From the IMG/VR virus record IMGVR_UViG_2534681772_000012, positions 1 through 10,338 of that record: a stretch of DNA of 10,338 nucleotides; one strand, written 5' to 3'. The notes under the pieces are model-generated. The model saw only the letters and a program-made list of their open reading frames with translations, did no database searches and was not told the origin of the DNA. The stretch comes from a virus. Its lineage: Duplodnaviria > Heunggongvirae > Uroviricota > Caudoviricetes. Shown piece by piece: positions 1-10,338 of the stretch. Position numbers and translations under genes: made by a program. Position 1 is the first letter of the stretch. Every line of letters starts with the position of its first letter.

Positions 1-70
1 TCACAAAAACGTAACCACACTGCCAATAGCCAGAGAAATATAATTTTTTTTGCGATTTTTTAGAACTGAC

Positions 71-130
71 ACAACGTGAAACAACGAGACACCACGACGA
101 ACAACGGCGAACAATCTGGAACAAACTTGA
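71..130. repeat. Six tandem 10-bp units with ACAACG-like core (ACAACGTGAA/ACAACGAGAC/ACCACGACGA/ACAACGGCGA/ACAATCTGGA/ACAAACTTGA), helical-turn phased; putative protein-binding array upstream of alpA
   Basis: Read directly from sequence: units start every 10 bp from position 71. Function is inferred from the phasing and the position in the AT-rich leader upstream of the alpA-like gene. Confidence 0.4.
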
Positions 131-410
131 TTAACATCTGACTGACACCCTAAAAAGTTGATTTTCAGTCGTTTTACTGGCTTTTTGTACATTGGCGAAT
201 CACTCTTAAAAACATGTAAAAAAGGCGTAAAAACAGAATTTTATGCCTTTGCACCACAATGAATTAAAAGAGTTTTTATTCTCATTACCACACTTCTGTA
301 AAATGACCGCCGCCAGTGTTTGCCATTCCATAAACACCCTGACACAATCCGACGCACCACAACACAATAGGACACCAAATAACTCTTTAAGAAATATCAA
401 AGGGGGAATT

Positions 411-599
411 GTGTTAAGCACAGATCGCTTTATACGTGAAAAAGAATGTCAGCAACTTACAGGCCTGAGCCGTTCATGTCGGTACCGCCTGGAAAAAACC
501 GGACAATTCCCATCACGGCGTAAGCTCGGCGGTCGTTCCGTTGGCTGGTCTTTATCCGAAGTTCTGGCATGGAAGGAAAGCTGCGAGGCAGTTCACTAA
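411..599 (+). CDS. alpA: AlpA-family (phage Vis/Xis-like HTH) transcriptional regulator
   Basis: C-terminal 63 aa of ORF 243..599 (MLSTDRFIREKECQQLTGLSRSCRYRLEKTGQFPSRRKLGGRSVGWSLSEVLAWKESC) match the AlpA/Vis family length and HTH pattern. GTG start at 411 follows RBS AGGGGG (401-406); the in-frame extension back to 243 has no RBS and looks like leader. Stop TAA 597-599. Confidence 0.8.
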   Translation: MLSTDRFIREKECQQLTGLSRSCRYRLEKTGQFPSRRKLGGRSVGWSLSEVLAWKESCEAVH

Positions 600-651
600 T
601 CAGGCTGGCGGCACACCGCCGCCACCCATCCACTAATACAGAGATCTAACC

Positions 652-1842
652 ATGAATACTGGATATTCTCCCGAACAAGGGCGGGGCTTCGTTCGTCCTG
701 AAAAACAGAATCTGCAAAATTTTGCCGAAATTATTCCGGTTATTTCCGGCCTTACTGGCGGGAGTGAAACCAATATTGTTAACGCCAGAGCGTTGCAGAT
801 GTTTGATGATAAAAAGGGAGTAAATTTAACTTACACCCCTGACGGCAATCAGAATATGAGCATTATCTCTGAGTCAGGTTTCTACAAACTAATAAAAACA
901 AAAAGCGCCCCGTTCCCGGAGCGCCTTTGTGAACAATTAACCTACTGCGCAAAAAATGAATCTGAGCAGTGGGATTATATCAACCGTGTGGCGAAGCGCC
1001 ACAATTGCCGGATAACAGGCAAAACAAAGGCCACCCGCTACGGTGGCCCCTCGACACAAGCTACACGTTATCCCCAACGCATGAGCATCACCAACAATGC
1101 CACATTTGCGGCTGGTGGGCAATGTGATCAGTCAGATTTGGTTCGTTCCAAGGTTTGCAACGAGAGCTTTTTCCTGTGCTCTTTAAGGAATTTCTCAAGA
1201 GCAAAAGCACATGGCGCGAATCTTTCTGATTCATGCTCTATCTTTCTGCGCCGTCTTTTCCGTGCCGGTGATAATGTTTTGGTCAATTCTTTATCGGTCA
1301 TTGTGTTGTCCTGCATAGCAATGCGCCGTAATACCTTACACCACGGCGCTGATGGTGATTACTCTGGTTCTTTGGTCTTGCGACGCTGGAGTTCTTCGCG
1401 TGCAACGGTGACAAGCTGCCCGATTTCTTCCGCTGCTTTGATGCCGATTTGTTCGACCTTAGCCAGGGCATCCAGTGACGACACAAGGGGATTTTCTCCG
1501 CTGCCTTCTGCTTGGCGGCGGGCTATTTCTCCGCGCATGGCGGTTACGATAAATCCGGCATTGCTTTCGCCGTCCAGCTTAACGGATTCCATCCCTTGCA
1601 TAACATCTAGTGGGACTCTGACAGTTGTCAGTTGTGATTTTGCGTTTTTGTTAGCCGTTGCCATTTCTGAAACTCCTAATCATCGGTGTGTTTCAGTATA
1701 CACAAAAAAAGAAATACAAAAAGCCTTGACGTGTGTTTCATGCGCTCATAACATGAAACACACCAAAAGAATTGTTGAAATACAAAGAGCAACGCCCCGC
1801 AGTGCCGGAAACACATACGGGGCGTCTAACCACCAACGATAG
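652..1842 (+). CDS. Questionable ORF; at most an N-terminal remnant (~652-900) of a disrupted gene, faintly Bro-N/Rha-like (IISESGFYKLI)
   Basis: ATG-to-stop ORF from the track. After ~aa 90 the translation is Ser/Cys/Arg-rich, as expected for an antisense read. It runs antisense to two protein-like minus-strand ORFs and through two minus-oriented terminator hairpins. No convincing RBS before ATG 652. Confidence 0.2.
   Translation: MNTGYSPEQGRGFVRPEKQNLQNFAEIIPVISGLTGGSETNIVNARALQMFDDKKGVNLTYTPDGNQNMSIISESGFYKLIKTKSAPFPERLCEQLTYCAKNESEQWDYINRVAKRHNCRITGKTKATRYGGPSTQATRYPQRMSITNNATFAAGGQCDQSDLVRSKVCNESFFLCSLRNFSRAKAHGANLSDSCSIFLRRLFRAGDNVLVNSLSVIVLSCIAMRRNTLHHGADGDYSGSLVLRRWSSSRATVTSCPISSAALMPICSTLARASSDDTRGFSPLPSAWRRAISPRMAVTINPALLSPSSLTDSIPCITSSGTLTVVSCDFAFLLAVAISETPNHRCVSVYTKKEIQKALTCVSCAHNMKHTKRIVEIQRATPRSAGNTYGASNHQR
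891..924 (-). terminator. Putative rho-independent terminator for minus-strand transcripts
   Basis: GC-rich imperfect hairpin 905-924 (GCGCCCC/GGAGCGC, one mismatch) followed on the minus strand by TTTTTGTTTTTATT (reverse complement of 891-904). Confidence 0.4.
1021..1048 (-). terminator. Putative rho-independent terminator for minus-strand transcripts
   Basis: Perfect 7-bp stem GGCCACC (1029-1035) / GGTGGCC (1042-1048) with a 6-nt loop, followed on the minus strand by TTTGTTTT (reverse complement of 1021-1028); about 80 nt downstream of the stop of minus ORF 1128..1301. Confidence 0.45.
1128..1301 (-). CDS. Small basic hypothetical protein (~57 aa, MTDKELTKTLSPARKRRRRK...)
   Basis: Minus ORF 1128..1316; the second in-frame ATG (1301) has a weak AGGA-like RBS. 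Lies just downstream of the RHH-like regulator and upstream of the minus-strand terminator. Composition is protein-like but there is no recognisable family. Confidence 0.3.
   Translation of the reverse strand: MTDKELTKTLSPARKRRRRKIEHESERFAPCAFALEKFLKEHRKKLSLQTLERTKSD
1359..1664 (-). CDS. Putative ribbon-helix-helix-like DNA-binding regulator (candidate repressor of the island), 101 aa
   Basis: Strong RBS AGGAG 8 nt upstream of ATG (minus 1677-1673). Balanced protein-like composition; N-terminal beta-strand-like TTVRVPLDV followed by helix-loop-helix (MQGMESVKLDGESNAGFIVTAMRGEIARRQ) resembles the RHH/Arc-MetJ fold. Divergent from the rightward operon promoter, the classic regulator position. 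Confidence 0.6.
   Translation of the reverse strand: MATANKNAKSQLTTVRVPLDVMQGMESVKLDGESNAGFIVTAMRGEIARRQAEGSGENPLVSSLDALAKVEQIGIKAAEEIGQLVTVAREELQRRKTKEPE
1686..1763. promoter_or_regulatory. Divergent promoter/operator region: sigma70-like promoter TTGACG (1726-1731) - 17 bp - TAACAT (1749-1754) for the rightward operon, overlapped by a perfect 12-bp inverted repeat GTGTGTTTCATG (1731-1742) / CATGAAACACAC (1752-1763); a third GTGTGTTTCA half-site at 1686-1695; leftward -10-like TATACT (complement of 1696-1701)
   Basis: Hexamers and repeats read directly from the sequence; assignment as operator for the adjacent regulator is inference. Confidence 0.5.
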
Positions 1843-1861
1843 CAAGATTATCGAGGCTGCT

Positions 1862-2068
1862 ATGAGAAATCATACCATACACCCGCAAGGGCGGGACTCG
1901 CACAACCTGAATAAATACATCTGGCGTTTTATCGCCCTGAGTACGGCACAACCGCGCGTGATTACCATTGAGGCCACCAGCGAACAGGAAGCCCGTCAGC
2001 AATCACCGGCTGGCTGCGTGATGGTATTCGCCGCCCGTATTCGTCAGGGGGTGCACCATGTGCAATAA
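1862..2068 (+). CDS. Small protein, probably Icd-like (host cell division inhibitor Icd-like family of P4-type satellites)
   Basis: ATG 1862 with GAGG RBS; the track ORF uses an upstream TTG at 1772. Motif pattern YIWRF-ALS...EATSEQEAR...FAARIRQ matches my memory of Icd-like proteins. Stop overlaps the next start (ATGTGCAATAA). Confidence 0.5.
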   Translation: MRNHTIHPQGRDSHNLNKYIWRFIALSTAQPRVITIEATSEQEARQQSPAGCVMVFAARIRQGVHHVQ

Positions 2069-2525
2069 CACCCGTCCGGACGCAGCCGCCGAAGCAATCA
2101 AAACACTGATTGATGCGCTGATTGATATTTCTGTTATCGCGGACAGGGCGCATAAGCACGCTACCAGTGAAACAGAATATGCCGGGGCTTTCGTTCCTCA
2201 TTCGCTGGCGGTTATGCAACTTAGTGCGGATATGGCGCTGAATGAGGCCAAAGCCATCCTGATTGCTGATTGTGAAAATGGGGGGGGGGTTATGCGTGAT
2301 GATCGTTTTAATTCCCTGAAACAGGAATTTTCCGGCGTTCCTGATGATGCGGCTGATGCGCTTTCGTCAATGCCAGAGCTTATTAGAGCGGCTTTTTTCT
2401 TACTTTCCACGAGAGAATATAAATCAACGGGGCTTGATGTACTGAATATCGCCGCCGATTATGCGGAATATGTGGCAGAGGCGCGTTACAGAAGAAAATT
2501 TCCTGAGGATGTAAGCCATGCGTGA
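2058..2525 (+). CDS. Hypothetical protein (155 aa) containing an internal G10 homopolymer
   Basis: ATG 2058 preceded by AGGGGG RBS; translationally coupled to neighbours on both sides. No recognisable family. G10 run at 2280-2289 encodes GGG and is followed by an in-frame ATG at 2292. Confidence 0.55.
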   Translation: MCNNTRPDAAAEAIKTLIDALIDISVIADRAHKHATSETEYAGAFVPHSLAVMQLSADMALNEAKAILIADCENGGGVMRDDRFNSLKQEFSGVPDDAADALSSMPELIRAAFFLLSTREYKSTGLDVLNIAADYAEYVAEARYRRKFPEDVSHA

Positions 2526-2751
2526 TATTTACCACGAAACAATAGACCGCGCATTTCTTGCACTTTCTCACAGTGAAAACATGCTGGAAATATTGCGCAT
2601 ATGGCTTGAAACACTTGGCGACAATGAACGCGACAAACAAAAATCAAGAATTGCCACGGCATTAATAACGCTTCTTGAGCCTGTAATAATGGAACTGCAA
2701 GAAATAGATCTATTGCACGACAGATATAAAGAACAGCACACCGGAGAATAA
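2518..2751 (+). CDS. Hypothetical protein (77 aa)
   Basis: ATG 2518 overlaps the upstream stop by 8 nt; GAGGA RBS; protein-like composition; no recognisable family. Confidence 0.55.
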   Translation: MRDIYHETIDRAFLALSHSENMLEILRIWLETLGDNERDKQKSRIATALITLLEPVIMELQEIDLLHDRYKEQHTGE

Positions 2752-2756
2752 AAATA

Positions 2757-3056
2757 ATGAAACTTAAATATTCTGGCTTAACTGCCAGTGGCAACACTCA
2801 CCCTAAATTTACGCGCGGTGATATTTACCGCGACCAGTACGGCGGCACGGTAATGATTAAGGGCGTGGAAGAACGGCGCGTAATCTACCGCCGTGAAGGT
2901 TACGAATATGATTGCGTGATGCCTGTTTATCAGTTCCGGTGTGATTTTTCTCTGGTACAGACCGCGCCGCATAACGTGCCCACCAGCAACGCCAGGGCAC
3001 GGGCAAACATCCAGAAGCTGAAAACCATGATTAACGGATTCAGGGGCAAGAAATGA
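2757..3056 (+). CDS. Hypothetical protein (99 aa)
   Basis: ATG 2757 with GGAG RBS; stop overlaps the rep start (ATGA at 3053-3056); no recognisable family. Confidence 0.55.
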   Translation: MKLKYSGLTASGNTHPKFTRGDIYRDQYGGTVMIKGVEERRVIYRREGYEYDCVMPVYQFRCDFSLVQTAPHNVPTSNARARANIQKLKTMINGFRGKK

Positions 3057-4468
3057 AAAGCGCACCGAACTTAAAAAAACAGCCTTACGACAAAATGACC
3101 GAAGTCATTATTTTTGCGGGTAGTGATGCCTGGGCGCACGCGAAACAATGGCAGGAGCAGGACGGGCGACTTGCTGGCGACAATGTTCCGCCTGTATGGC
3201 TGGGAGACAGCCAGCTTGACGAACTGGCAGGCCTGAAAATTATCGACGATGGTCGCTATTGTGTCCGACTGTACAAGGCAGGCCACATCAAGCCGTCAAA
3301 TATTAATGCCATCGGGCAAAAGCTGGCGGCGGCAGGTGTACGGGATGCGAATTATTACCCTGAGGGAATGCACAGTCAGAAGCTGGAGAACTGGCACGAC
3401 TACCTGCAACGGATCCGCGAACAGGCAGAGCGCGGGGAAATACTTACTGACGAGCAATACAGCCAGCGAAAAACCACGCTACCAATGAGCATTGGATCTG
3501 CAGGGTACGACACACAGCTTGATTATGTCGTTAAGGGCGTGATTCCGGCTAATTCATTGTGCAGCACATACGGCGCGAGCGGTTCCTATAAATCGTTCCT
3601 CGCGTGTTCCTGGGCGTGTCATGTTGCCACGGGTCGCCACTGGGGAGGTCGCAGGGTGGCGCATGGTTCGGTGATGTATGTTGTCGGTGAAGGTGGCATT
3701 GGTGTCCCCCGCCGTATCAAGGCATGGGAAATCGTTAATGATGAACGGGTGAAAAATCTGTACCTGGTAAACCGCCCGATTTTTCCTGCAGCCCAGTTTG
3801 ATGTTGATGAAATGGTTATCGCATCCCGCCAGGTTGAACGGGAAACGGGTAAACCGGTACGCATGATTATTCTGGATACGCTGGCGCGTTGCTTTGGCGG
3901 TAATGATGAAAATGACGCGCGGGATATGGGGGCGTTTATCCGTGGATGTGACGAACTGAAACGACGCACAGGGGCCACGGTGCTGGTGGTTCACCATTCC
4001 GGCAAGGATGAAACAAAAGGGGCGCGTGGTTCCAGTGCATTTCGTGCATCTCTGGACGCTGAGTACCGGATCCGCCGCGAAGGCGCGGACAGTGAGGCCC
4101 TGGTTATCTCCTGCACCAAAATGAAGGACGCGGAGGAACTGAAAGAGGCTGCATATGATTTACGTGTGGTGGAGCTTTTTACCGACGCTGACAAGGAGTT
4201 AATCACGTCGCTGGTGGTTGTGGATAAGCCGCGCCCACCCGTTGAACTGGAGCGCATCGAGGAGGCCGGAAACAAGACGGAGAATCACGCCGCACTATGG
4301 GGCTGTATCCGGTCACGCACACAGCGCGGCGATAAATGCACTATCCCGTTGTTGCGCGATGATATGAAAAAGCTGGGGTATGAGATGAAAAACTTCCGGC
4401 GCTGGCTGTACAAGCTGGAAAGAGACGGCGTTATCGCTATTGACGGTGATGATGTGCGCCCACTGTAA
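3053..4468 (+). CDS. Replication initiator / RepA-like RecA-fold (AAA_25-type) ATPase, 471 aa; no primase domain recognised
   Basis: Walker A-like GASGSYKS and Walker B-like hydrophobic run ending in D (RMIILDTL) in the central region; RBS AGGGG; an iteron array follows the stop codon immediately, as in PICI/SaPI-type pri-rep/ori units. Confidence 0.8.
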   Translation: MKSAPNLKKQPYDKMTEVIIFAGSDAWAHAKQWQEQDGRLAGDNVPPVWLGDSQLDELAGLKIIDDGRYCVRLYKAGHIKPSNINAIGQKLAAAGVRDANYYPEGMHSQKLENWHDYLQRIREQAERGEILTDEQYSQRKTTLPMSIGSAGYDTQLDYVVKGVIPANSLCSTYGASGSYKSFLACSWACHVATGRHWGGRRVAHGSVMYVVGEGGIGVPRRIKAWEIVNDERVKNLYLVNRPIFPAAQFDVDEMVIASRQVERETGKPVRMIILDTLARCFGGNDENDARDMGAFIRGCDELKRRTGATVLVVHHSGKDETKGARGSSAFRASLDAEYRIRREGADSEALVISCTKMKDAEELKEAAYDLRVVELFTDADKELITSLVVVDKPRPPVELERIEEAGNKTENHAALWGCIRSRTQRGDKCTIPLLRDDMKKLGYEMKNFRRWLYKLERDGVIAIDGDDVRPL

Positions 4469-4669
4469 AAAGTGAGGCGCAAAAGTGAGGGGATAGCAGG
4501 AACTGAACAAAAAGCAACCGCGCCCCTCACTTTTCAATCTGTATATAGGCTCAAAAGTGAGGAATAAAAAACACATTGAAAAACAACATATTAGAATCAC
4601 AAAAAAACAAGGTTGGAAATCATGTGGGGAGCTTAAAAAGTGAGGCGAAAAAGTGGGGAGTAGTGGGGA
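4467..4669. repeat. Putative origin of replication: iterons (consensus AAAAGTGAGG) flanking an AT-rich core
   Basis: Copies at 4467-4477, 4481-4490, 4523-4534 (inverted), 4553-4562, 4635-4645, 4647-4657 (degenerate), plus degenerate 4621-4630 and 4661-4668; AT-rich stretch 4563-4620; directly 3' of rep. Confidence 0.6.
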
Positions 4670-4921
4670 ATGACCAGAAAAAGCAGAGATAAAACAGCAC
4701 CAAAATATCGCGCATTAGACATGACAGAGCACGCCTTAAAGGTGGCAATCAGAACGATAGACCGCCACGCCGGAGAAGGATACGCGAAAGCGCATCCCGA
4801 ACTGATAAGCGCATTCATGACCACGGCGGCGGCAAATTTTGCCACACTGACAGAACGGGAGATTGCCGAAGCGGAACAGGTGACAACCATCAACGTTAAA
4901 ACCGGAGAGCAGACAGCATGA
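4670..4921 (+). CDS. Hypothetical protein (83 aa), translationally coupled to ssb
   Basis: ATG 4670; stop TGA overlaps the ssb ATG (ATGA at 4918-4921); no recognisable family. Confidence 0.5.
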   Translation: MTRKSRDKTAPKYRALDMTEHALKVAIRTIDRHAGEGYAKAHPELISAFMTTAAANFATLTEREIAEAEQVTTINVKTGEQTA

Positions 4922-5340
4922 CAGCACAGATAGCGGCTTACGGGCGGCTGGTGGCTGACCCGCAGTTAAAGACCACCAGCAAGGGTACACAAATGACGAT
5001 GGCGAGTATGGCGGTCCCACTTCCGTGCAGCCAGGCAGATGACGGAACGGCGACGATGTGGTTATCCGTCCTGGCGTTTGGCAGACAGGCCGAAGCACTG
5101 GCAAAGCACCGCAAGGGTGAACTCCTGAGCGTGGCGGGTAACATGCAGGTAAGCCAGTGGACAGGCCAGAACGGCGAAACGCGGCGGGGCTGGCAGGTTA
5201 TCGCAGACAGCGTAATCAGTGCGCGAACGGCGCGACCGGGCGGCAAAAAAGGTCAGCAGGGGCAGGCCACTGACGCACTGAACAGGGCAAAACAACAGTC
5301 GGGGAATGATGATCCGTACGGCGATAATATACCGTTTTAA
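4918..5340 (+). CDS. ssb: Single-stranded DNA-binding protein (short, 140 aa)
   Basis: GGAGA RBS; OB-fold-like N-terminal pattern; Gly/Gln-rich linker; acidic C-terminal tail ...DDPYGDNIPF resembling the SSB signature DDDIPF. Confidence 0.65.
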   Translation: MTAQIAAYGRLVADPQLKTTSKGTQMTMASMAVPLPCSQADDGTATMWLSVLAFGRQAEALAKHRKGELLSVAGNMQVSQWTGQNGETRRGWQVIADSVISARTARPGGKKGQQGQATDALNRAKQQSGNDDPYGDNIPF

Positions 5341-5357
5341 ATTCTGCAAACAAAAAG

Positions 5358-5386
5358 ATGCCGGAAAAAAATAGATTTTCCGGCAT
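5358..5386. terminator. Hairpin with 11-bp perfect stem (ATGCCGGAAAA / TTTTCCGGCAT, 7-nt loop); terminator-like, T-tract only on the minus-strand side
   Basis: Read directly from the sequence, 18 nt after the ssb stop. On the minus strand it is followed by CTTTTTGTTTG; on the plus strand there is no T-tract. Confidence 0.4.
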
Positions 5387-5551
5387 GCTACATAAATCCC
5401 GACCAAAGGAAGTAAATACATTAACACGAATTATCAGCACTGAAGTTGTCACGGCATATTTTATACAACATTGCACTTGGTTGCATGTATTCGCATAGCA
5501 GACATCGGTAATAGAATATATTCACAATTATTTGTAATGAATGTAAAGAGG

Positions 5552-6598
5552 ATGAGTATGGTTGATTTATATTCGCCTACACAGCTTGTGCAGGTGGCTA
5601 ATGCTGAAGATGTGCAAAAAAAATTAAATGCGTTGTTTACCAGTTTGTTTTTCACTCGCTCGGTAATGTTTGAATCGAGAGACATTATTCTTGATACGAT
5701 CGACGATCCAAATATCCCGATCGCGGCGTTTTGCTCTCCTATGGTGGGCAGTAAAGTTTCACGAGATGAGGGATACGAATCAAAAACAATTCGCCCTGGC
5801 TATATGAAACCGAAAAGCAGCATTGATCCAAATAAGTTAGCTGTGCGCCCTGCTGGTGTATCACCTGAACAATACAATGCTTTTGGGGCGCGTAATATTA
5901 AAGTTAAACAGGCGATTGTAAATCAGGCTAAAGCTATACGTGCACGTATTGAATGGCTTGCTGTTCAGGCAATCACAACGGGGAAAAATATCATTGAGGG
6001 CGATGGTATTGAACGTTATGAACTGGACTGGAATATAAAACCACAAAATATTATCACGCAGTCTGGCGGTGCTGAGTGGTCAGGTAAGGATAAAGAAACT
6101 TTTGATCCAAATGATGATATTGAGAGCTACGCAGAATTTAGTGAGGGCGTCACTAATATCATCATTATGGGCGGTAATGTATGGAAGAAATACCGTTCAT
6201 TCAGAGCGATAAAAGAGGCTCTGGATACCCGCCGTGGTTCTAATTCCGAACTGGAAACGGCCCTTAAAGACCTTGGTGATTCGGTGAGTTTTAAAGGGTA
6301 TATGGGCGATGTTGCGATTGTTGTTTACAGCGGACGTTATACCGACGAGGACGGAACTGAAAAACATTTCCTTGATCCTGATTTGATGGTGCTTGGCAAT
6401 ACGGCTCTTCAGGGGATTGTCGCCTATGGCGGTATTCAGGATCCGGAGCTAACCCGAATGGGGCTGACTAAAGCCGAACTTGCACCGAAAAACTATATTG
6501 TGCCTGGTGATCCGGCTATTGAGTACGTACAAACGCACTCTGCACCACAGCCAATACCGGCCCGCATCAATCGTTTTGTTACCGTTCGCATTGGCTAA
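5552..6598 (+). CDS. Lambda gpE-like major capsid protein
   Basis: Translation from MSMVDLYSPTQL aligns along its length with my memory of lambda gpE (MSMYTTAQLL..., ITQSGG-EWS-DK-T-DP-DDIE-YA, TRRGSNSELETA-KDLG, GDVAIVVYSG-Y, MVLGNT, GDPA). Start 5552 by homology; ATG 5558 has better RBS spacing from AAGAGG. Stop TAA 6596-6598. Confidence 0.85.
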   Translation: MSMVDLYSPTQLVQVANAEDVQKKLNALFTSLFFTRSVMFESRDIILDTIDDPNIPIAAFCSPMVGSKVSRDEGYESKTIRPGYMKPKSSIDPNKLAVRPAGVSPEQYNAFGARNIKVKQAIVNQAKAIRARIEWLAVQAITTGKNIIEGDGIERYELDWNIKPQNIITQSGGAEWSGKDKETFDPNDDIESYAEFSEGVTNIIIMGGNVWKKYRSFRAIKEALDTRRGSNSELETALKDLGDSVSFKGYMGDVAIVVYSGRYTDEDGTEKHFLDPDLMVLGNTALQGIVAYGGIQDPELTRMGLTKAELAPKNYIVPGDPAIEYVQTHSAPQPIPARINRFVTVRIG

Positions 6599-6607
6599 GG
6601 GGGAGCA

Positions 6608-6850
6608 ATGGCTACTCATTACACTGAACTCATGTCTGGCACTGAAGCACTGGTTACTACGCTGGGGATATTTTCAGCCAATAAAGGGGTAATACCTGCG
6701 TTTACGCCACTGATGCAGGAAGATGCAACTGGTGCGCTAGTGGTATGGGATGGAACGAGCGCAGGCAAAGCGGTTTATGTTTCCGCTGTACAAATCGACA
6801 CTGAACCGCCCCGGGAATCCTGGAGACTAAACTCCCTGAGAAAGAGGTAA
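6608..6850 (+). pseudogene. Lambda gpD-like head decoration protein gene, 3'-truncated by IS629-like insertion
   Basis: RBS AGGGGGAG; TPLMQEDATGALVVWDGTSAGKAVYVSAV matches the lambda gpD region [29 protein letters not shown]. Homology ends at 6801, where the IS inverted repeat begins; the last ~16 codons of the ORF are IS-derived. Confidence 0.7.
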
Positions 6851-6855
6851 ACAGG

Positions 6856-7182
6856 ATGACTAAAAATACTCGTTTTTCCCCCGAAGTCCGTCAGAGGGCG
6901 ATTCGTATGGTTCTGGAAAGTCAGGGCGAATATGACTCACAGTGGGCGGCAATTTGTTCCATTGCCCCAAAGATTGACTGTACACCGGAGACTCTGCGTG
7001 TCTGGGTACGCCAGCATGAGCGGGATACCGGAGGCGGTGATGGCGGGCTCACCACCGCTGAACGTCAGCGTCTGAAAGAGCTGGAACGTGAAAATCGTGA
7101 ACTGCGCCGCAGTAACGATATCCTTCGCCAGGCTTCCGCTTATTTTGCGAAGGCGGAGTTCGACCGCCTCTGGAAAAAGTGA
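6856..7182 (+). CDS. IS3-family transposase OrfA (HTH/leucine-zipper part), IS629-like
   Basis: 108 aa, [30 protein letters not shown]...[36 protein letters not shown]; ends at the frameshift window. Confidence 0.9.
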
Positions 7183-8069
7183 TGCCACTGCTGGATAAGC
7201 TGCGTAAGCTGTACGGGGTCGGACCGGTATGCAGTGAACTACATATTGCCCCGTCAACGTATTACCACTGTCAGCAACAGCGACATCATCCTGATAAACG
7301 CAGTGCCCGTGCGCAGCGCGATGACTGGCTGAAGAAAGAGATACTGCGCGTATACGATGGGAATCATCAGGTATACGGTGTGCGTAAAGTCTGGCGTCAG
7401 TTGTTACGGGAAGGAATCAGGGTAGCCAGATGTACAGTGGCGCGCCTCATGGCGGTTATGGGACTTGCCGGTGTTCTCCGGGGTAAAAAGGTCCGCACTA
7501 CCGTCAGCCGGAAAGCCGTTGCCGCAGGCGACCGCGTAAACCGTCAGTTTGTGGCAGAACGTCCTGACCAGTTGTGGGTGGCTGATTTTACTTACGTCAG
7601 CACATGGCAGGGGGTCGTCTATGTGGCGTTCATCATTGATGTGTTTGCCGGATACATCGTGGGGTGGCGGGTCTCATCGTCTATGGAAACGACATTCGTG
7701 CTGGATGCTCTGGAGCAGGCGTTATGGGCCCGTCGACCGTCCGGCACAGTCCATCACAGTGATAAAGGTTCTCAGTATGTATCGCTGGCCTACACACAGC
7801 GGCTTAAGGAAGCCGGATTACTGGCATCAACAGGAAGTACTGGTGACTCGTATGACAACGCGATGGCGGAGAGCATCAATGGCCTTTACAAAGCGGAGGT
7901 AATACACCGTAAGAGCTGGAAAAACCGGACAGAAGTGGAACTGGCCACACTCACGTGGGTGGACTGGTATAACAATCGACGATTGCTGGAAAGGCTGGGC
8001 CATATCCCACCGGCAGAAGCAGAAAAAGCTTATTATGCTTCCATCGGAAACGATGATCTGGCAGCCTGA
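7179..8069 (+). CDS. IS3-family transposase OrfB (DDE catalytic domain), IS629-like; expressed as OrfAB fusion by -1 frameshift
   Basis: 296 aa with DDE-type motifs ([31 protein letters not shown]); overlaps orfA in the -1 frame. Confidence 0.9.
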
Positions 8070-8123
8070 GTTCACAGATAAAACACTCTCCAGGAAACCC
8101 GGGGCGGTTCACAAAGTGTTTTT

Positions 8124-9698
8124 TCATCGCACACCGCCTTTTTCCTGATGAAAGCGGCAACGAGCAATCACGGATTGAATTTCAAATTGTGTGGTTTCAT
8201 GGATTGAAATAAGTGGATTGCGGGCGTTACCAACACTGTCTGAAATGGAAATCAATTCATCGACTTCTTTAACTACACTCTCCAGCACCGCCTGATGGTC
8301 ACCATCAGTAAAGGGGCGGAAATACAGGCAACCGTAGCAGCAGCGTACTTCACTGAATGGGCATTTGCCATCATCTCTGGAGCAACCGCCAATCCCATCA
8401 TGCAACTCATCACCGATTATGCCGACCACGCGCTGGTCTTGCCATTTCGTTGAAGAGGTCAGTTCACCAGTCAACATCATAGCCACCATGTTTTGCCATA
8501 CCGGATTGATACCCAATGCTTTGGCTCGAATCAGTGCCAGTGCAGGCGTCGCCAGAATGTAATACTTGGCAACAGTAAGGGAGCTATGTCCCAGAATATG
8601 CGCAATTTCCTCGGCGCTGACCCCTTGCATAGCCAGTGAATGCCCCACGTTGTGGCGCAAGTCGGTCGGGGTAATGGTTGGCAAAGCCGCTTCGCCACGC
8701 TTTACGGCTGCCTGATAATCTGGCGGACTGAAACAGAGGAAGGCCTTGTTAATCGCTCTGGACACATTAAACGGTGCAGAGTTACTAAATTCAAATAGCT
8801 TGCCATCAGGTTTTAGTTGCGCTCGCTCGATATAGTGCCTAATCAACGCGCCGATTTCAGCTGGAATCGCCAAAAACAGACGTTCAGTCGTTACGTGCCG
8901 CTGTTTGGCGTAAGGAAGGAGTAAGCTATATCGTATTAATCCGGTTTCGGAGTTTCGGGTATCAATACGTAAATCTTTTACCGCCAGCTTGGCCAGTTGT
9001 ACCGGTCGGGCACCGGTGACATACGTCAGTCCCAGAATTACTGCATCTCGCATGGTGTTCAGACTGTAGTTTTCGCCATACCGAATCGCCACAGCCATTT
9101 CAAACAAGCCTTTACTGATCATGTTTTTTTCGAGGGGATCCAGAACATGATCAATTTCCTGATAGATTCCCCAGTCATGGGAGTGCGGGCGAGGGATGAA
9201 TTCGAGGTCTTCATAATCTTCGAGGGTAAAACCAGGGAATGCTTCGGTACAGAGGATTTTTAGGCCGAAAATGATAAAGTAGAAATATTGAGGTTTAATT
9301 TCCTGAGTTTCGAGGTAATCTTTCAACACCGTAAAAGTGAAAGCAGATTTGCTTATGCAATGATCAGTTGCCAAAGACCACGCATGGAGTACCCCAGGAA
9401 CCTGAGCTGGACACTTGGCAGATGCATAATGGAAGCAAATATATTTGATTAATTGGTTGCTGATTTTATCCTGACGAAAGTGGGCATAGCAGCGGCTTCC
9501 TGAATAATCGAATACCCAACTGTCACTTGTTGAGCTGATATATTTGTCATCAAAATGATCTGCCGATTTAAGATAAATACTAACTGGTATATTAACCTTT
9601 AAAATACTCTCAACAAATACAGGTGTGTAAATGTTGCTGTTCGACGCATTTAACTGTTTATTGATTCGACTCATATGCACTCCATTCATCGCATACAT
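8124..9698 (-). CDS. Tyrosine recombinase / phage-integrase-family protein, large (516-524 aa) with Cys-rich C-terminal region
   Basis: Catalytic-motif pattern in the central part: GARPVQLAKL (Arg box), DLRHNVGHSLAM (H-x-x-R), LGHSSLTVAKYYI (His/Tyr nucleophile box). The best RBS (GGAG) precedes the third in-frame ATG at 9674, so the true start may be 9674. Stop is 12 bp from the IS629 end. Confidence 0.75.
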   Translation of the reverse strand: MYAMNGVHMSRINKQLNASNSNIYTPVFVESILKVNIPVSIYLKSADHFDDKYISSTSDSWVFDYSGSRCYAHFRQDKISNQLIKYICFHYASAKCPAQVPGVLHAWSLATDHCISKSAFTFTVLKDYLETQEIKPQYFYFIIFGLKILCTEAFPGFTLEDYEDLEFIPRPHSHDWGIYQEIDHVLDPLEKNMISKGLFEMAVAIRYGENYSLNTMRDAVILGLTYVTGARPVQLAKLAVKDLRIDTRNSETGLIRYSLLLPYAKQRHVTTERLFLAIPAEIGALIRHYIERAQLKPDGKLFEFSNSAPFNVSRAINKAFLCFSPPDYQAAVKRGEAALPTITPTDLRHNVGHSLAMQGVSAEEIAHILGHSSLTVAKYYILATPALALIRAKALGINPVWQNMVAMMLTGELTSSTKWQDQRVVGIIGDELHDGIGGCSRDDGKCPFSEVRCCYGCLYFRPFTDGDHQAVLESVVKEVDELISISDSVGNARNPLISIHETTQFEIQSVIARCRFHQEKGGVR

Positions 9699-10085
9699 GG
9701 GAAAAGGTTGATTTCAGGGCTTCGTTATCAATCACAATTCGCTGAAGATTGGCCGTATTAGCCTGCTGAGATAGAAATCTTTTAGCGTAAAGATCAGGCA
9801 TATGGCTATTGTGACTCCAACCGCCAAGTAGCCGTAATTCATCCTTGGCTTCATCCATCAATCCAACGATAGAAAAGTCTATGGCTGCCAAGTGTGAGTT
9901 GGCCTTAATTTTTTGAAGTTTATCACGATAAATACGTTGAAGTGTTAAATAAGCCCAAGTATGCCGCGTTATATGAGGCGAGATGCTTTCAATGGCATCA
10001 TAATATTCATCTTTTTTATATTCAGGATACTGCACACTCATAATGTCATCAATACGGGTAAAGATATCATAGACTGCATGGTATG
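9658..10085 (-). pseudogene. C-terminal catalytic fragment of a second tyrosine recombinase, 5'-truncated by IS2
   Basis: PHITRHTWAYLTL (H-x-x-R box) and LLGGWSHNSHMPDLYAKRF (His...Tyr box) present; N-terminal domains absent. The first ~9 codons of track ORF 9658..10113 (MSGDSGGQS) are encoded by the IS2 terminal repeat. Its 3' end overlaps the start of the downstream recombinase. Confidence 0.65.
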
Positions 10086-10338
10086 TAGACTGGCCCCCTG
10101 AATCTCCAGACAACCAATATCACTTAAATAAGTGATAGTCTTAATACTAGTTTTTAGACTAGTCATTGGAGAGCAGATGATTGATGTCTTAGGACCGGAG
10201 AAACGCAGACGGCGTACTACACAGGAAAAGATCGCTATTGTTCAGCAGAGTTTTGAACCGGGAATGACGGTCTCCCTTGTTGCCCGGCAACACGGTGTGG
10301 CAGCCAGCCAGTTATTTCTCTGGCGCAAGCAATACCAG
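10086..10338 (+). mobile_element. IS2 (IS3 family) left end, partial; continues beyond the window
   Basis: TAGACTGGCCCCCTGAATCTCCAGACAACCAATATCACTTAAATAAGTGATAGTC... matches my memory of the IS2 terminal repeat and leader; followed by the IS2 orfA start. Confidence 0.85.
10177..10338 (+). CDS. insC: IS2 transposase OrfA (InsC-like), 5' partial at window edge
   Basis: ATG 10177; translation [54 protein letters not shown]... matches IS2 OrfA as I recall it; ORF open to the window end. Confidence 0.8.

Follow-up and report, generated by a model that had tools for sequence, protein, structure and literature searches.

The stretch of DNA analysed here (the window) comprises 10,338 nucleotides, positions 1 to 10,338 of the IMG/VR record IMGVR_UViG_2534681772_000012 (Caudoviricetes), and is an EcCICFT073-like phage-inducible chromosomal island (PICI). 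Its island genes lie on the + strand only and encode AlpA, a DUF4222 protein (2757–3056; Pfam) located directly upstream of rep in the same module, a 471-aa initiator-helicase Rep (3053–4468; RefSeq name “helicase RepA family protein”), an 83-aa ORF assigned to phrog_1231 (4670–4921), an SSB belonging to the replication module (4918–5340; Pfam SSB, E=1e-15), a lambda-E-like capsid protein, and a lambda-D-like decoration protein. With the putative origin described below placed between rep and the 83-aa ORF, the order AlpA, DUF4222, rep, origin, hypothetical gene, SSB, capsid, and decoration is that of EcCICFT073, the prototype Gram-negative PICI (PMC6092414). The window copy is interrupted at ~6802 by an IS3-family element, which is followed by unrelated integrase-like genes, and the right end of the island is absent from the window; the junction at ~6802 was found in no complete E. 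coli genome of the collection searched. A stretch identical to the window is carried by E. coli KSC1031 in an island of ~10 kb with an integrase, located between abgR and smrA. PICIs are recognized by int, alpA, unidirectional transcription, a length of about 10–15 kb, an att site of their own, and morphogenesis or interference genes, and the locus agrees with this, the integrase being seen in KSC1031 and the window copy being truncated. The same origin is also present in an IMG/VR contig (L082). More broadly, the rep-ori segment (4300–4800) was matched by 993 of the 5426 complete E. coli genomes, and the exact variant of the window (at least 99% identity) by three of them.

The stop codon of rep (TAA, 4466–4468) leads directly into a cluster of short repeats, with five exact copies of the 10-mer AAAAGTGAGG (four on the + strand, one on the − strand) within 4468–4669. 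The left set (4468–4562) has four copies, namely L1 (4468–4477, +), which begins at the final A of the stop codon, L2 (4481–4490, +), an inverted copy (4525–4534, −), and L4 (4553–4562, +); the positions of L1 and L2 are kept in relatives. The right set (4620–4668) also has four copies, all on the + strand: a core-only copy (4620–4629, core GTGGGG at 4624–4629), an exact AAAAGTGAGG (4636–4645), a copy with one mismatch, AAAAGTGGGG (4649–4658), and a second core-only copy (4659–4668, core GTGGGG at 4663–4668). The A-type core GTGAGG is thus found in one of the four right-arm repeats and GTGGGG in the other three. Matches to AAAAGTGAGG are expected by chance 0.68 times per window, seven or more matches occurred in none of 200 shuffles, and a single one-mismatch match (at 7175) was found outside the array in the whole window.

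The first-pass annotation had described this region as an iteron-type origin with at least six repeat copies that start within the rep stop codon, and both points hold, with five exact copies, one with a single mismatch, and two core-only copies, the array itself starting on the last A of TAA. Its description of copies in both orientations is accurate in that one copy is inverted, but the array is lopsided and mostly direct, since every right-arm copy reads on the + strand and, among the four left-arm copies, the one at 4525–4534 alone is inverted. The “roughly helical spacing” also applied to the array is right in a loose sense: adjacent tandem cores are spaced 13, 16, 13, and 10 bp apart, and among 126 non-redundant related origins the iteron spacing has its main peak at 10–13 bp and a second one at 16–17 bp, but there is no strict 10.5-bp phasing.

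The inverted iteron and L4 are the two halves of a 38-bp palindrome (4525–4562), which are separated by a spacer with the centre TGTATATA (4540–4547); when the region was folded as single-stranded DNA, the palindrome hairpin had a z-score of −2.9. Adjoining it is an AT-rich core (4563–4620), which corresponds well to the ~60 bp originally described and has a length of 58 bp, a GC content of 22%, and 60% A on the + strand. It ties for the lowest-GC 58-mer of the window (48% GC overall), is nearly identical between A-type and G-type E. coli origins, and is presumed to be the DNA-unwinding region. No DnaA box was found in 4467–4669, and across the window such boxes are no more frequent than chance predicts; a DnaA-dependent origin is therefore not indicated. 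There are zero GATC sites in 4401–4750, and the Rfam search of the whole window returned the IS3 ALIL pseudoknot only, with no family in the origin. Scans of 4300–4800 for sigma-70 promoters and intrinsic terminators found neither, and rep and the downstream genes thus appear to be co-transcribed through the origin.

Rep is predicted to combine a TOPRIM-like N-terminal domain, a RepA/DnaB-like RecA-fold helicase, and a C-terminal winged helix. The AAA_25 helicase core is its only Pfam match, in agreement with the earlier designation as a RepA-like ATPase, and this core matches the RecA folds of RSF1010 RepA, Twinkle, T7 gp4, and Rad51-type proteins. An AlphaFold2 model (33-sequence input; mean pLDDT 64) is confident (pLDDT 75–94) at residues 10–125 and 400–471, and the helicase core is poorly modelled (pLDDT <50 at residues 151–178, 277–290, and 316–399). 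The N-terminal domain (3053–3454; aa 1–134) is a modular alpha/beta domain, common to the EcCICFT073 Pri-Rep, and matches the TOPRIM regions of topoisomerases. In an alignment of this domain, “AG” stands where TOPRIM proteins usually have “EG” and a conserved DxD motif seems to be missing, and for these reasons we do not assume the domain to be a primase. The winged-helix domain (4250–4465; aa 400–471) is confidently modelled, with helices at residues 410–424, 431–440, and 448–457 followed by a beta-hairpin at 461–470 within the last 70 residues, and the third of these helices (4394–4423; aa 448–457) is the predicted recognition helix.

We then examined how far this arrangement extends beyond the window, using 80 loci from other genera (Rep 47–71% identical; 78 usable), including Xenorhabdus, Pantoea, Serratia, Pectobacterium, Morganella, Kosakonia, Kluyvera, and Citrobacter, and 80 mostly E. 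coli-like loci from IMG/VR (Rep 62–100% identical). Roughly 120 relatives, representing more than 25 genera, keep the layout. To the left of the central region they have two or three iterons at the stop codon, then an inverted one, a palindrome centred on TGTATATA, and one more iteron; to its right they have three or four iterons. About 70 of the 78 genome loci have 5–12 copies of a 9-mer within 330 bp past the rep stop codon at fixed positions. To the left of the central region, direct copies lie near +1, between about +12 and +17, and near +85, with an inverted one near +55, and to its right direct copies lie near +143, +170, and +182; measured from the rep stop codon, ~80 IMG/VR loci show this layout as well. 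The inverted copy pairs with the direct copy that follows it to give the palindrome, whose centre, TGTATATA(C), is kept across genera. In a set of 61 non-redundant E. coli-type origins, conservation reaches at least 90% at the iterons and the palindrome centre, against 30–70% in the spacers and ~50% at the fourth core base. The central region is not especially AT-rich in several other genera. In Xenorhabdus sp. TCT-1 (L003, L009) and in Pectobacterium sp. B2J-2 (L053, L054), the two co-resident copies share one iteron type, and we rejected the idea, for which there is no support, that iterons diverge between co-resident islands to avoid cross-talk.

The conserved layout also bears on the relationship between the array and the next gene. 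The start of this ORF had been placed within the last iterons; the repeats do overlap its ribosome-binding region, and its ATG (4670) lies one base beyond the last core copy. In E. coli relatives, the downstream ATG is 1–11 nt past the last repeat and the last iterons overlap the ribosome-binding region, whereas in other genera the downstream gene is a different one and its ATG lies ~15–25 nt further on, with its own AGGAG. The suggestion that the next ORF is under replication-coupled control finds no support; the overlap is kept in E. coli relatives and not beyond, and there is no sign of a regulatory function.

The variability of the fourth core base has a counterpart in Rep. We aligned the C-terminal 340 residues of Rep across loci and computed the mutual information of each column with the iteron class, and the highest value was that of residue 447, which is Asn in the window (codon AAC, 4391–4393, +) and which in the model immediately precedes the third (recognition) helix, in the N-cap position. 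When each distinct pair of C-terminus and origin is counted once, the match between residue 447 and iteron base 4 has no exception among the 118 loci that could be classified; 17 further loci were too repeat-poor for this. The dominant core is GTGAGG in all 46 loci with N447, GTGCGG in all five with S447, GTGGGG in all 29 with K447, and GTGGGG or GTGGGh in all 38 with H447. The number of independent switches at residue 447 is lower than the number of loci counted. A third E. coli class has TKHLKRW at residues 445–451 and GTGGGC iterons, and the rule also holds in mosaic E. coli Reps, whose N-domains are 0–100% and helicase cores 67–100% identical to those of the window. The 447/base-4 pairings fit the side-chain preferences usual in protein–DNA contacts, in which adenine is commonly met by Asn, and guanine by Lys or His.

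Codon 447 lies just 75 nt from the first iteron, and linked inheritance could therefore explain part of the covariation. An E. coli relative (L087) argues against hitch-hiking in a divergent block: its Rep is 97–98% identical to that of the window, its iterons are G-type, and its rep DNA is 95–100% identical up to the stop codon, the only change near codon 447 being a single base in that codon (AAC to CAC). Residue 457, the other difference between the two proteins (Arg in the window), was rejected as the specificity residue, since A-type iterons occur with R, K, S, or G at this position, and G-type iterons with G, N, K, or S. Similarly, DUF4222, the 83-aa ORF, SSB, and the Rep N-domain were rejected as iteron binders, being conserved in EcCICFT073 despite its unrelated iterons; only the helicase and winged-helix part of Rep changes with the iterons. 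Recognition of the iterons by the winged helix is supported indirectly, by the 447/base-4 match, as judged from sequence comparison.

Two experimentally studied groups of islands provide the closest points of reference. The PICI origin was located by Fillol-Salom et al. (2018) immediately 3′ of rep, and the rep-ori of EcCICFT073 sustains a temperature-sensitive plasmid, whereas the delta-rep and delta-ori versions do not (PMC6092414). EcCICFT073 resembles the window in its kind of island and gene order (int, alpA, ..., DUF4222, rep, ori, small ORF, SSB, ..., capsid, decoration), in an origin that occupies the same slot 3′ of rep with iterons flanking a central region, and in the sequences of its DUF4222 (92% identical), downstream ORF (85%), SSB (69%), and N-terminal 134 aa of Rep (61%). 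The rest of its Rep is unrelated, as this is a 584-aa “DNA primase family protein” rather than a 471-aa RepA/AAA_25 helicase with a winged helix, and its iterons are TGTCTACC/GGTAGA, numerous and in both orientations, in contrast to the mostly direct AAAAGTGAGG of the window. The replication experiment accordingly belongs to the Rep allele of EcCICFT073, while the rep-ori of the window is a different allele known from sequence; four Pri-Rep alleles have been mentioned for E. coli PICIs (PMC6092414). The Reps of SaPIs are self-loading helicases that bind and melt their origins (Qiao et al. 2022), with a C-terminal winged helix that recognizes 6–12 iterons of 5–6 bp; these iterons surround a central AT-rich region immediately past rep, and the motors are of the SF3 or SF6 (MCM-like) AAA+ type (PMC9371898). 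Like these, the window appears to encode initiator and helicase in one polypeptide with a winged helix, and its iterons lie directly downstream of rep around an AT-rich region, but its motor is predicted to be RecA-fold and RepA/DnaB-like, the SaPI and window Reps have no sequence similarity, and the SaPI orientation of iterons is not seen, all window copies being on the + strand except the inverted one at 4525–4534.

Other replicons share fewer of these features. The RepA of RSF1010 (IncQ) has no DNA-binding domain and needs the iteron-binding initiator RepC and the primase RepB, acting on 20-bp iterons. In the window, by contrast, helicase and putative origin-binding domain form one protein, and neither RepB nor RepC was found among its ORFs, Pfam matches, or PHROG matches. 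The initiators of pPS10, R6K, RK2, and F are Rep_3-type double winged-helix proteins without helicase activity, an activity that lambda O also lacks; these replicons have iterons of 17–22 bp and DnaA boxes and depend on loading of the host DnaB, with ori-lambda located inside the O gene. Common to them and the window is an initiator that binds, or in the window would bind, repeats beside an AT-rich unwinding element, but the window has an AAA_25 Rep, 10-bp repeats with a 6-bp core, and no DnaA box. P4 alpha unites a primase, an SF3 helicase, and C-terminal DNA binding, and acts with two separate repeat clusters, ori and crr. The window differs from this, in that its helicase class is not the SF3 of P4 and it holds no second AAAAGTGAGG cluster; PICI Pri-Reps have been reported to differ from P4 alpha (PMC6092414).

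A free form of a related element is on record in Klebsiella pneumoniae (pKp_Goe_795-4, CP018459.1), a circular sequence of 16,971 bp that looks like a capsid-forming PICI and has a Rep of this family together with the same arrangement of the origin. Its Rep is 59% identical to that of the window over the full length, including the winged helix, and its origin follows directly after rep. It differs from the window in having S447 and GTGCGG iterons, a GC-richer central region that replaces the A-rich core and bears a CATTACTGG motif, and another morphogenesis module (capsid, adaptor, and large and small terminase).

Taken together, the published PICI layout, the layout conserved among relatives, and the covariation with the Rep recognition helix support the earlier proposal of an origin for the adjacent Rep. 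We consider it very probable, on sequence comparison and by analogy, that 4466–4669 constitutes the origin from which an EcCICFT073-like PICI replicates and on which the product of the adjoining upstream rep gene acts in cis, the textbook reading for PICI-class elements. Autonomous replication after induction, as originally proposed for the element, is plausible for the Rep family in general, the free circular Klebsiella element being the one hint of it, and doubtful for the window copy, as this is cut by the IS3-family element at ~6802 and its right end is missing.

Whether this copy still works is a genuine concern, and its origin might be one by descent that is now non-functional or weakened. 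Three of its four right-arm cores are GTGGGG while its Rep is N447 (A-type), and the N447 relatives L101 and L135 have all-A right arms; with one A-type core in four repeats, the right arm may be suboptimal. The IS3-family insertion with loss of the right end and the rarity of the exact variant (three genomes) point in the same direction. On the other hand, rep remains an intact ORF, the left arm and the palindrome are perfectly A-type, and both the apparently complete island of KSC1031 and contig L082 have this same origin. H447 origins also carry a stray A-type or GTGGGT copy, which suggests that mixed arms are tolerated. We regard a loss or weakening of function as unlikely.

The repeats could also be operator sites for the downstream operon (83-aa ORF, SSB, and capsid genes), bound by Rep or another island protein, with no origin at all. 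Such a role would suit the overlap of the last repeats with the next ribosome-binding region, the transcription that appears to cross a region where no terminator was found, and the fact that winged-helix proteins are often transcription factors. Yet 4300–4800 contains no sigma-70-like promoter, two arms around an AT-rich core after rep are the layout of proven origins (EcCICFT073 and SaPIs), other genera have a different downstream gene that starts 15–25 nt past the repeats, and neither DUF4222 nor the downstream ORF covaries with the repeats. The absence of a promoter, the proven-origin layout, and the different and more distant next gene in other genera make it quite improbable that operator function is the sole role, although the region may have a dual role as origin and roadblock. 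Least probable, and in our view very hard to credit, is a packaging site (pac or a cosB-like array) bound by small terminase: terminase-binding sites are often short repeated motifs and an intact relative (L001) encodes a small terminase, but the site is not near terS and the repeats covary with the Rep winged helix. Moreover, the cassette occurs in three packaging set-ups, namely EcCICFT073-like cos islands without TerS, TerS-encoding islands, and a capsid-forming island with its own terminases, and thus tracks Rep rather than TerS.

If the region is a replication origin, as we favor, initiation could proceed as follows. The winged helix would bind the 10-bp iterons (core GTGAGG), with Asn447 reading the fourth core base, as the covariation and the structure model suggest. 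If it works as SaPI Reps do, Rep bound to the arms and the palindrome might then form rings that open the A-rich 58-bp core. Host primase and polymerase would presumably take over with the help of the island SSB, the host primase being invoked because the Rep N-domain seems to be without the usual TOPRIM acidic motifs. More tentatively, and at slightly less than an even chance, we propose that Rep is a self-loading SF4-type RecA-fold initiator-helicase that follows a near one-residue/one-base rule at residue 447 (N=A, H/K=G, S=C), with residues 445, 448, and 449 shifting base 6; the motors of the PICI Reps whose structures have been studied to date are SF3 or SF6.

The origin layout itself is already published for PICIs (2018, PMC6092414), and the picture of PICI biology is therefore unchanged; only the residue-447 rule and the RecA-fold (SF4-like) motor go beyond the accessible literature. 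The analysis assigns a putative origin to a satellite replicon that is very common in E. coli and gives exact iteron coordinates, of use for cloning or deletion. If the 447 rule is true, specificity would be reprogrammable by one nucleotide change together with iteron drift, as the pair formed by the window and L087 suggests. The rule could then explain matched replicons in related satellites, and could serve the design of orthogonal rep-ori pairs.

The right arm of the origin (4620-4668) was found to be mixed, with one A-type core (GTGAGG, the class that goes with Rep residue N447) at 4640 and three G-type cores (GTGGGG, the class that goes with H447 or K447) at 4624, 4653, and 4663, while the Rep itself has N447. 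A near-identical Escherichia coli relative with H447 (locus L087) presents the reverse case, its last core being a single A-type core. The mixed arms of these two origins suggest either recombination within origins or a tolerated cross-recognition between Rep and iteron classes.

The iteron palindrome (4525-4562) is centered on TGTATATA(C) at 4540-4547, and this center is kept across genera, irrespective of iteron class, and is a perfect CCCTGTATACAGGG in the related locus L029. This center might serve as a site for a host factor, as the point of loading or melting, or as the middle of a cruciform. The central region of the origin of EcCICFT073, the prototype Gram-negative PICI, carries the motif CTGAAAsCCsCG.CATTACTGG, which is also central in RepA-type origins of Klebsiella, Kluyvera, Phytobacter, Enterobacter soli, and others; the Reps of EcCICFT073 and of these origins are unrelated. 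The motif lies at about 11183-11205 in L163 and about 4966-4988 (minus strand) in L165, and it is also present in L029, L030, L034, L036, L037, and L040. In the window, by contrast, an A-rich core (4563-4620) takes the position of this motif. The rep gene contains a perfect DnaA box (TTATCCACA) on the minus strand at 4219-4227, some 240 bp upstream of the origin, and the count of DnaA boxes across the whole window is at chance level.

As for the surroundings of the origin, a 396-aa ORF at 652-1842 (plus strand), the longest in the window's left part, probably does not represent a gene. Its composition is unusual, and the identical RefSeq locus has no annotation for it, the real genes there being a YlcI/YnfO-family gene on the minus strand (1359-1664) and small plus-strand genes. 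Like EcCICFT073 (c1499 and c1500), the island encodes homologues of the lambda E capsid (5471-6598; 55% identical to the EcCICFT073 capsid) and lambda D decoration (6608-6850) proteins; no phenotype was found for c1499 (PMC6092414). The decoration gene is broken by an IS3-family element (6802-8111; orfA 6856-7182, orfB 7179-8069, ALIL pseudoknot 7137-7253), leaving a product of 80 aa compared to 113 aa in E. coli KSC1031, which carries the identical locus in an apparently complete island. The right part of the island (HTH regulator, small terminase, and right end) is missing from the window. Past the IS lie two overlapping minus-strand genes resembling site-specific integrases (8124-9698, 524 aa, phrog_24633; 9658-10113, 151 aa, phrog_18324), which occur together in many E. 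coli genomes; their junction to the island was found in no complete genome of the collection.

The Klebsiella pneumoniae relative L165 (CP018459.1) is a circular "plasmid" of 16,971 bp whose record as a whole resembles a PICI of the capsid-forming kind, assembled as a free circle. It has genes for an integrase, an AlpA-like protein, a capsid protein, a head-tail adaptor, and the large and small terminase subunits, together with a gene for a RepA-type Rep and its origin.
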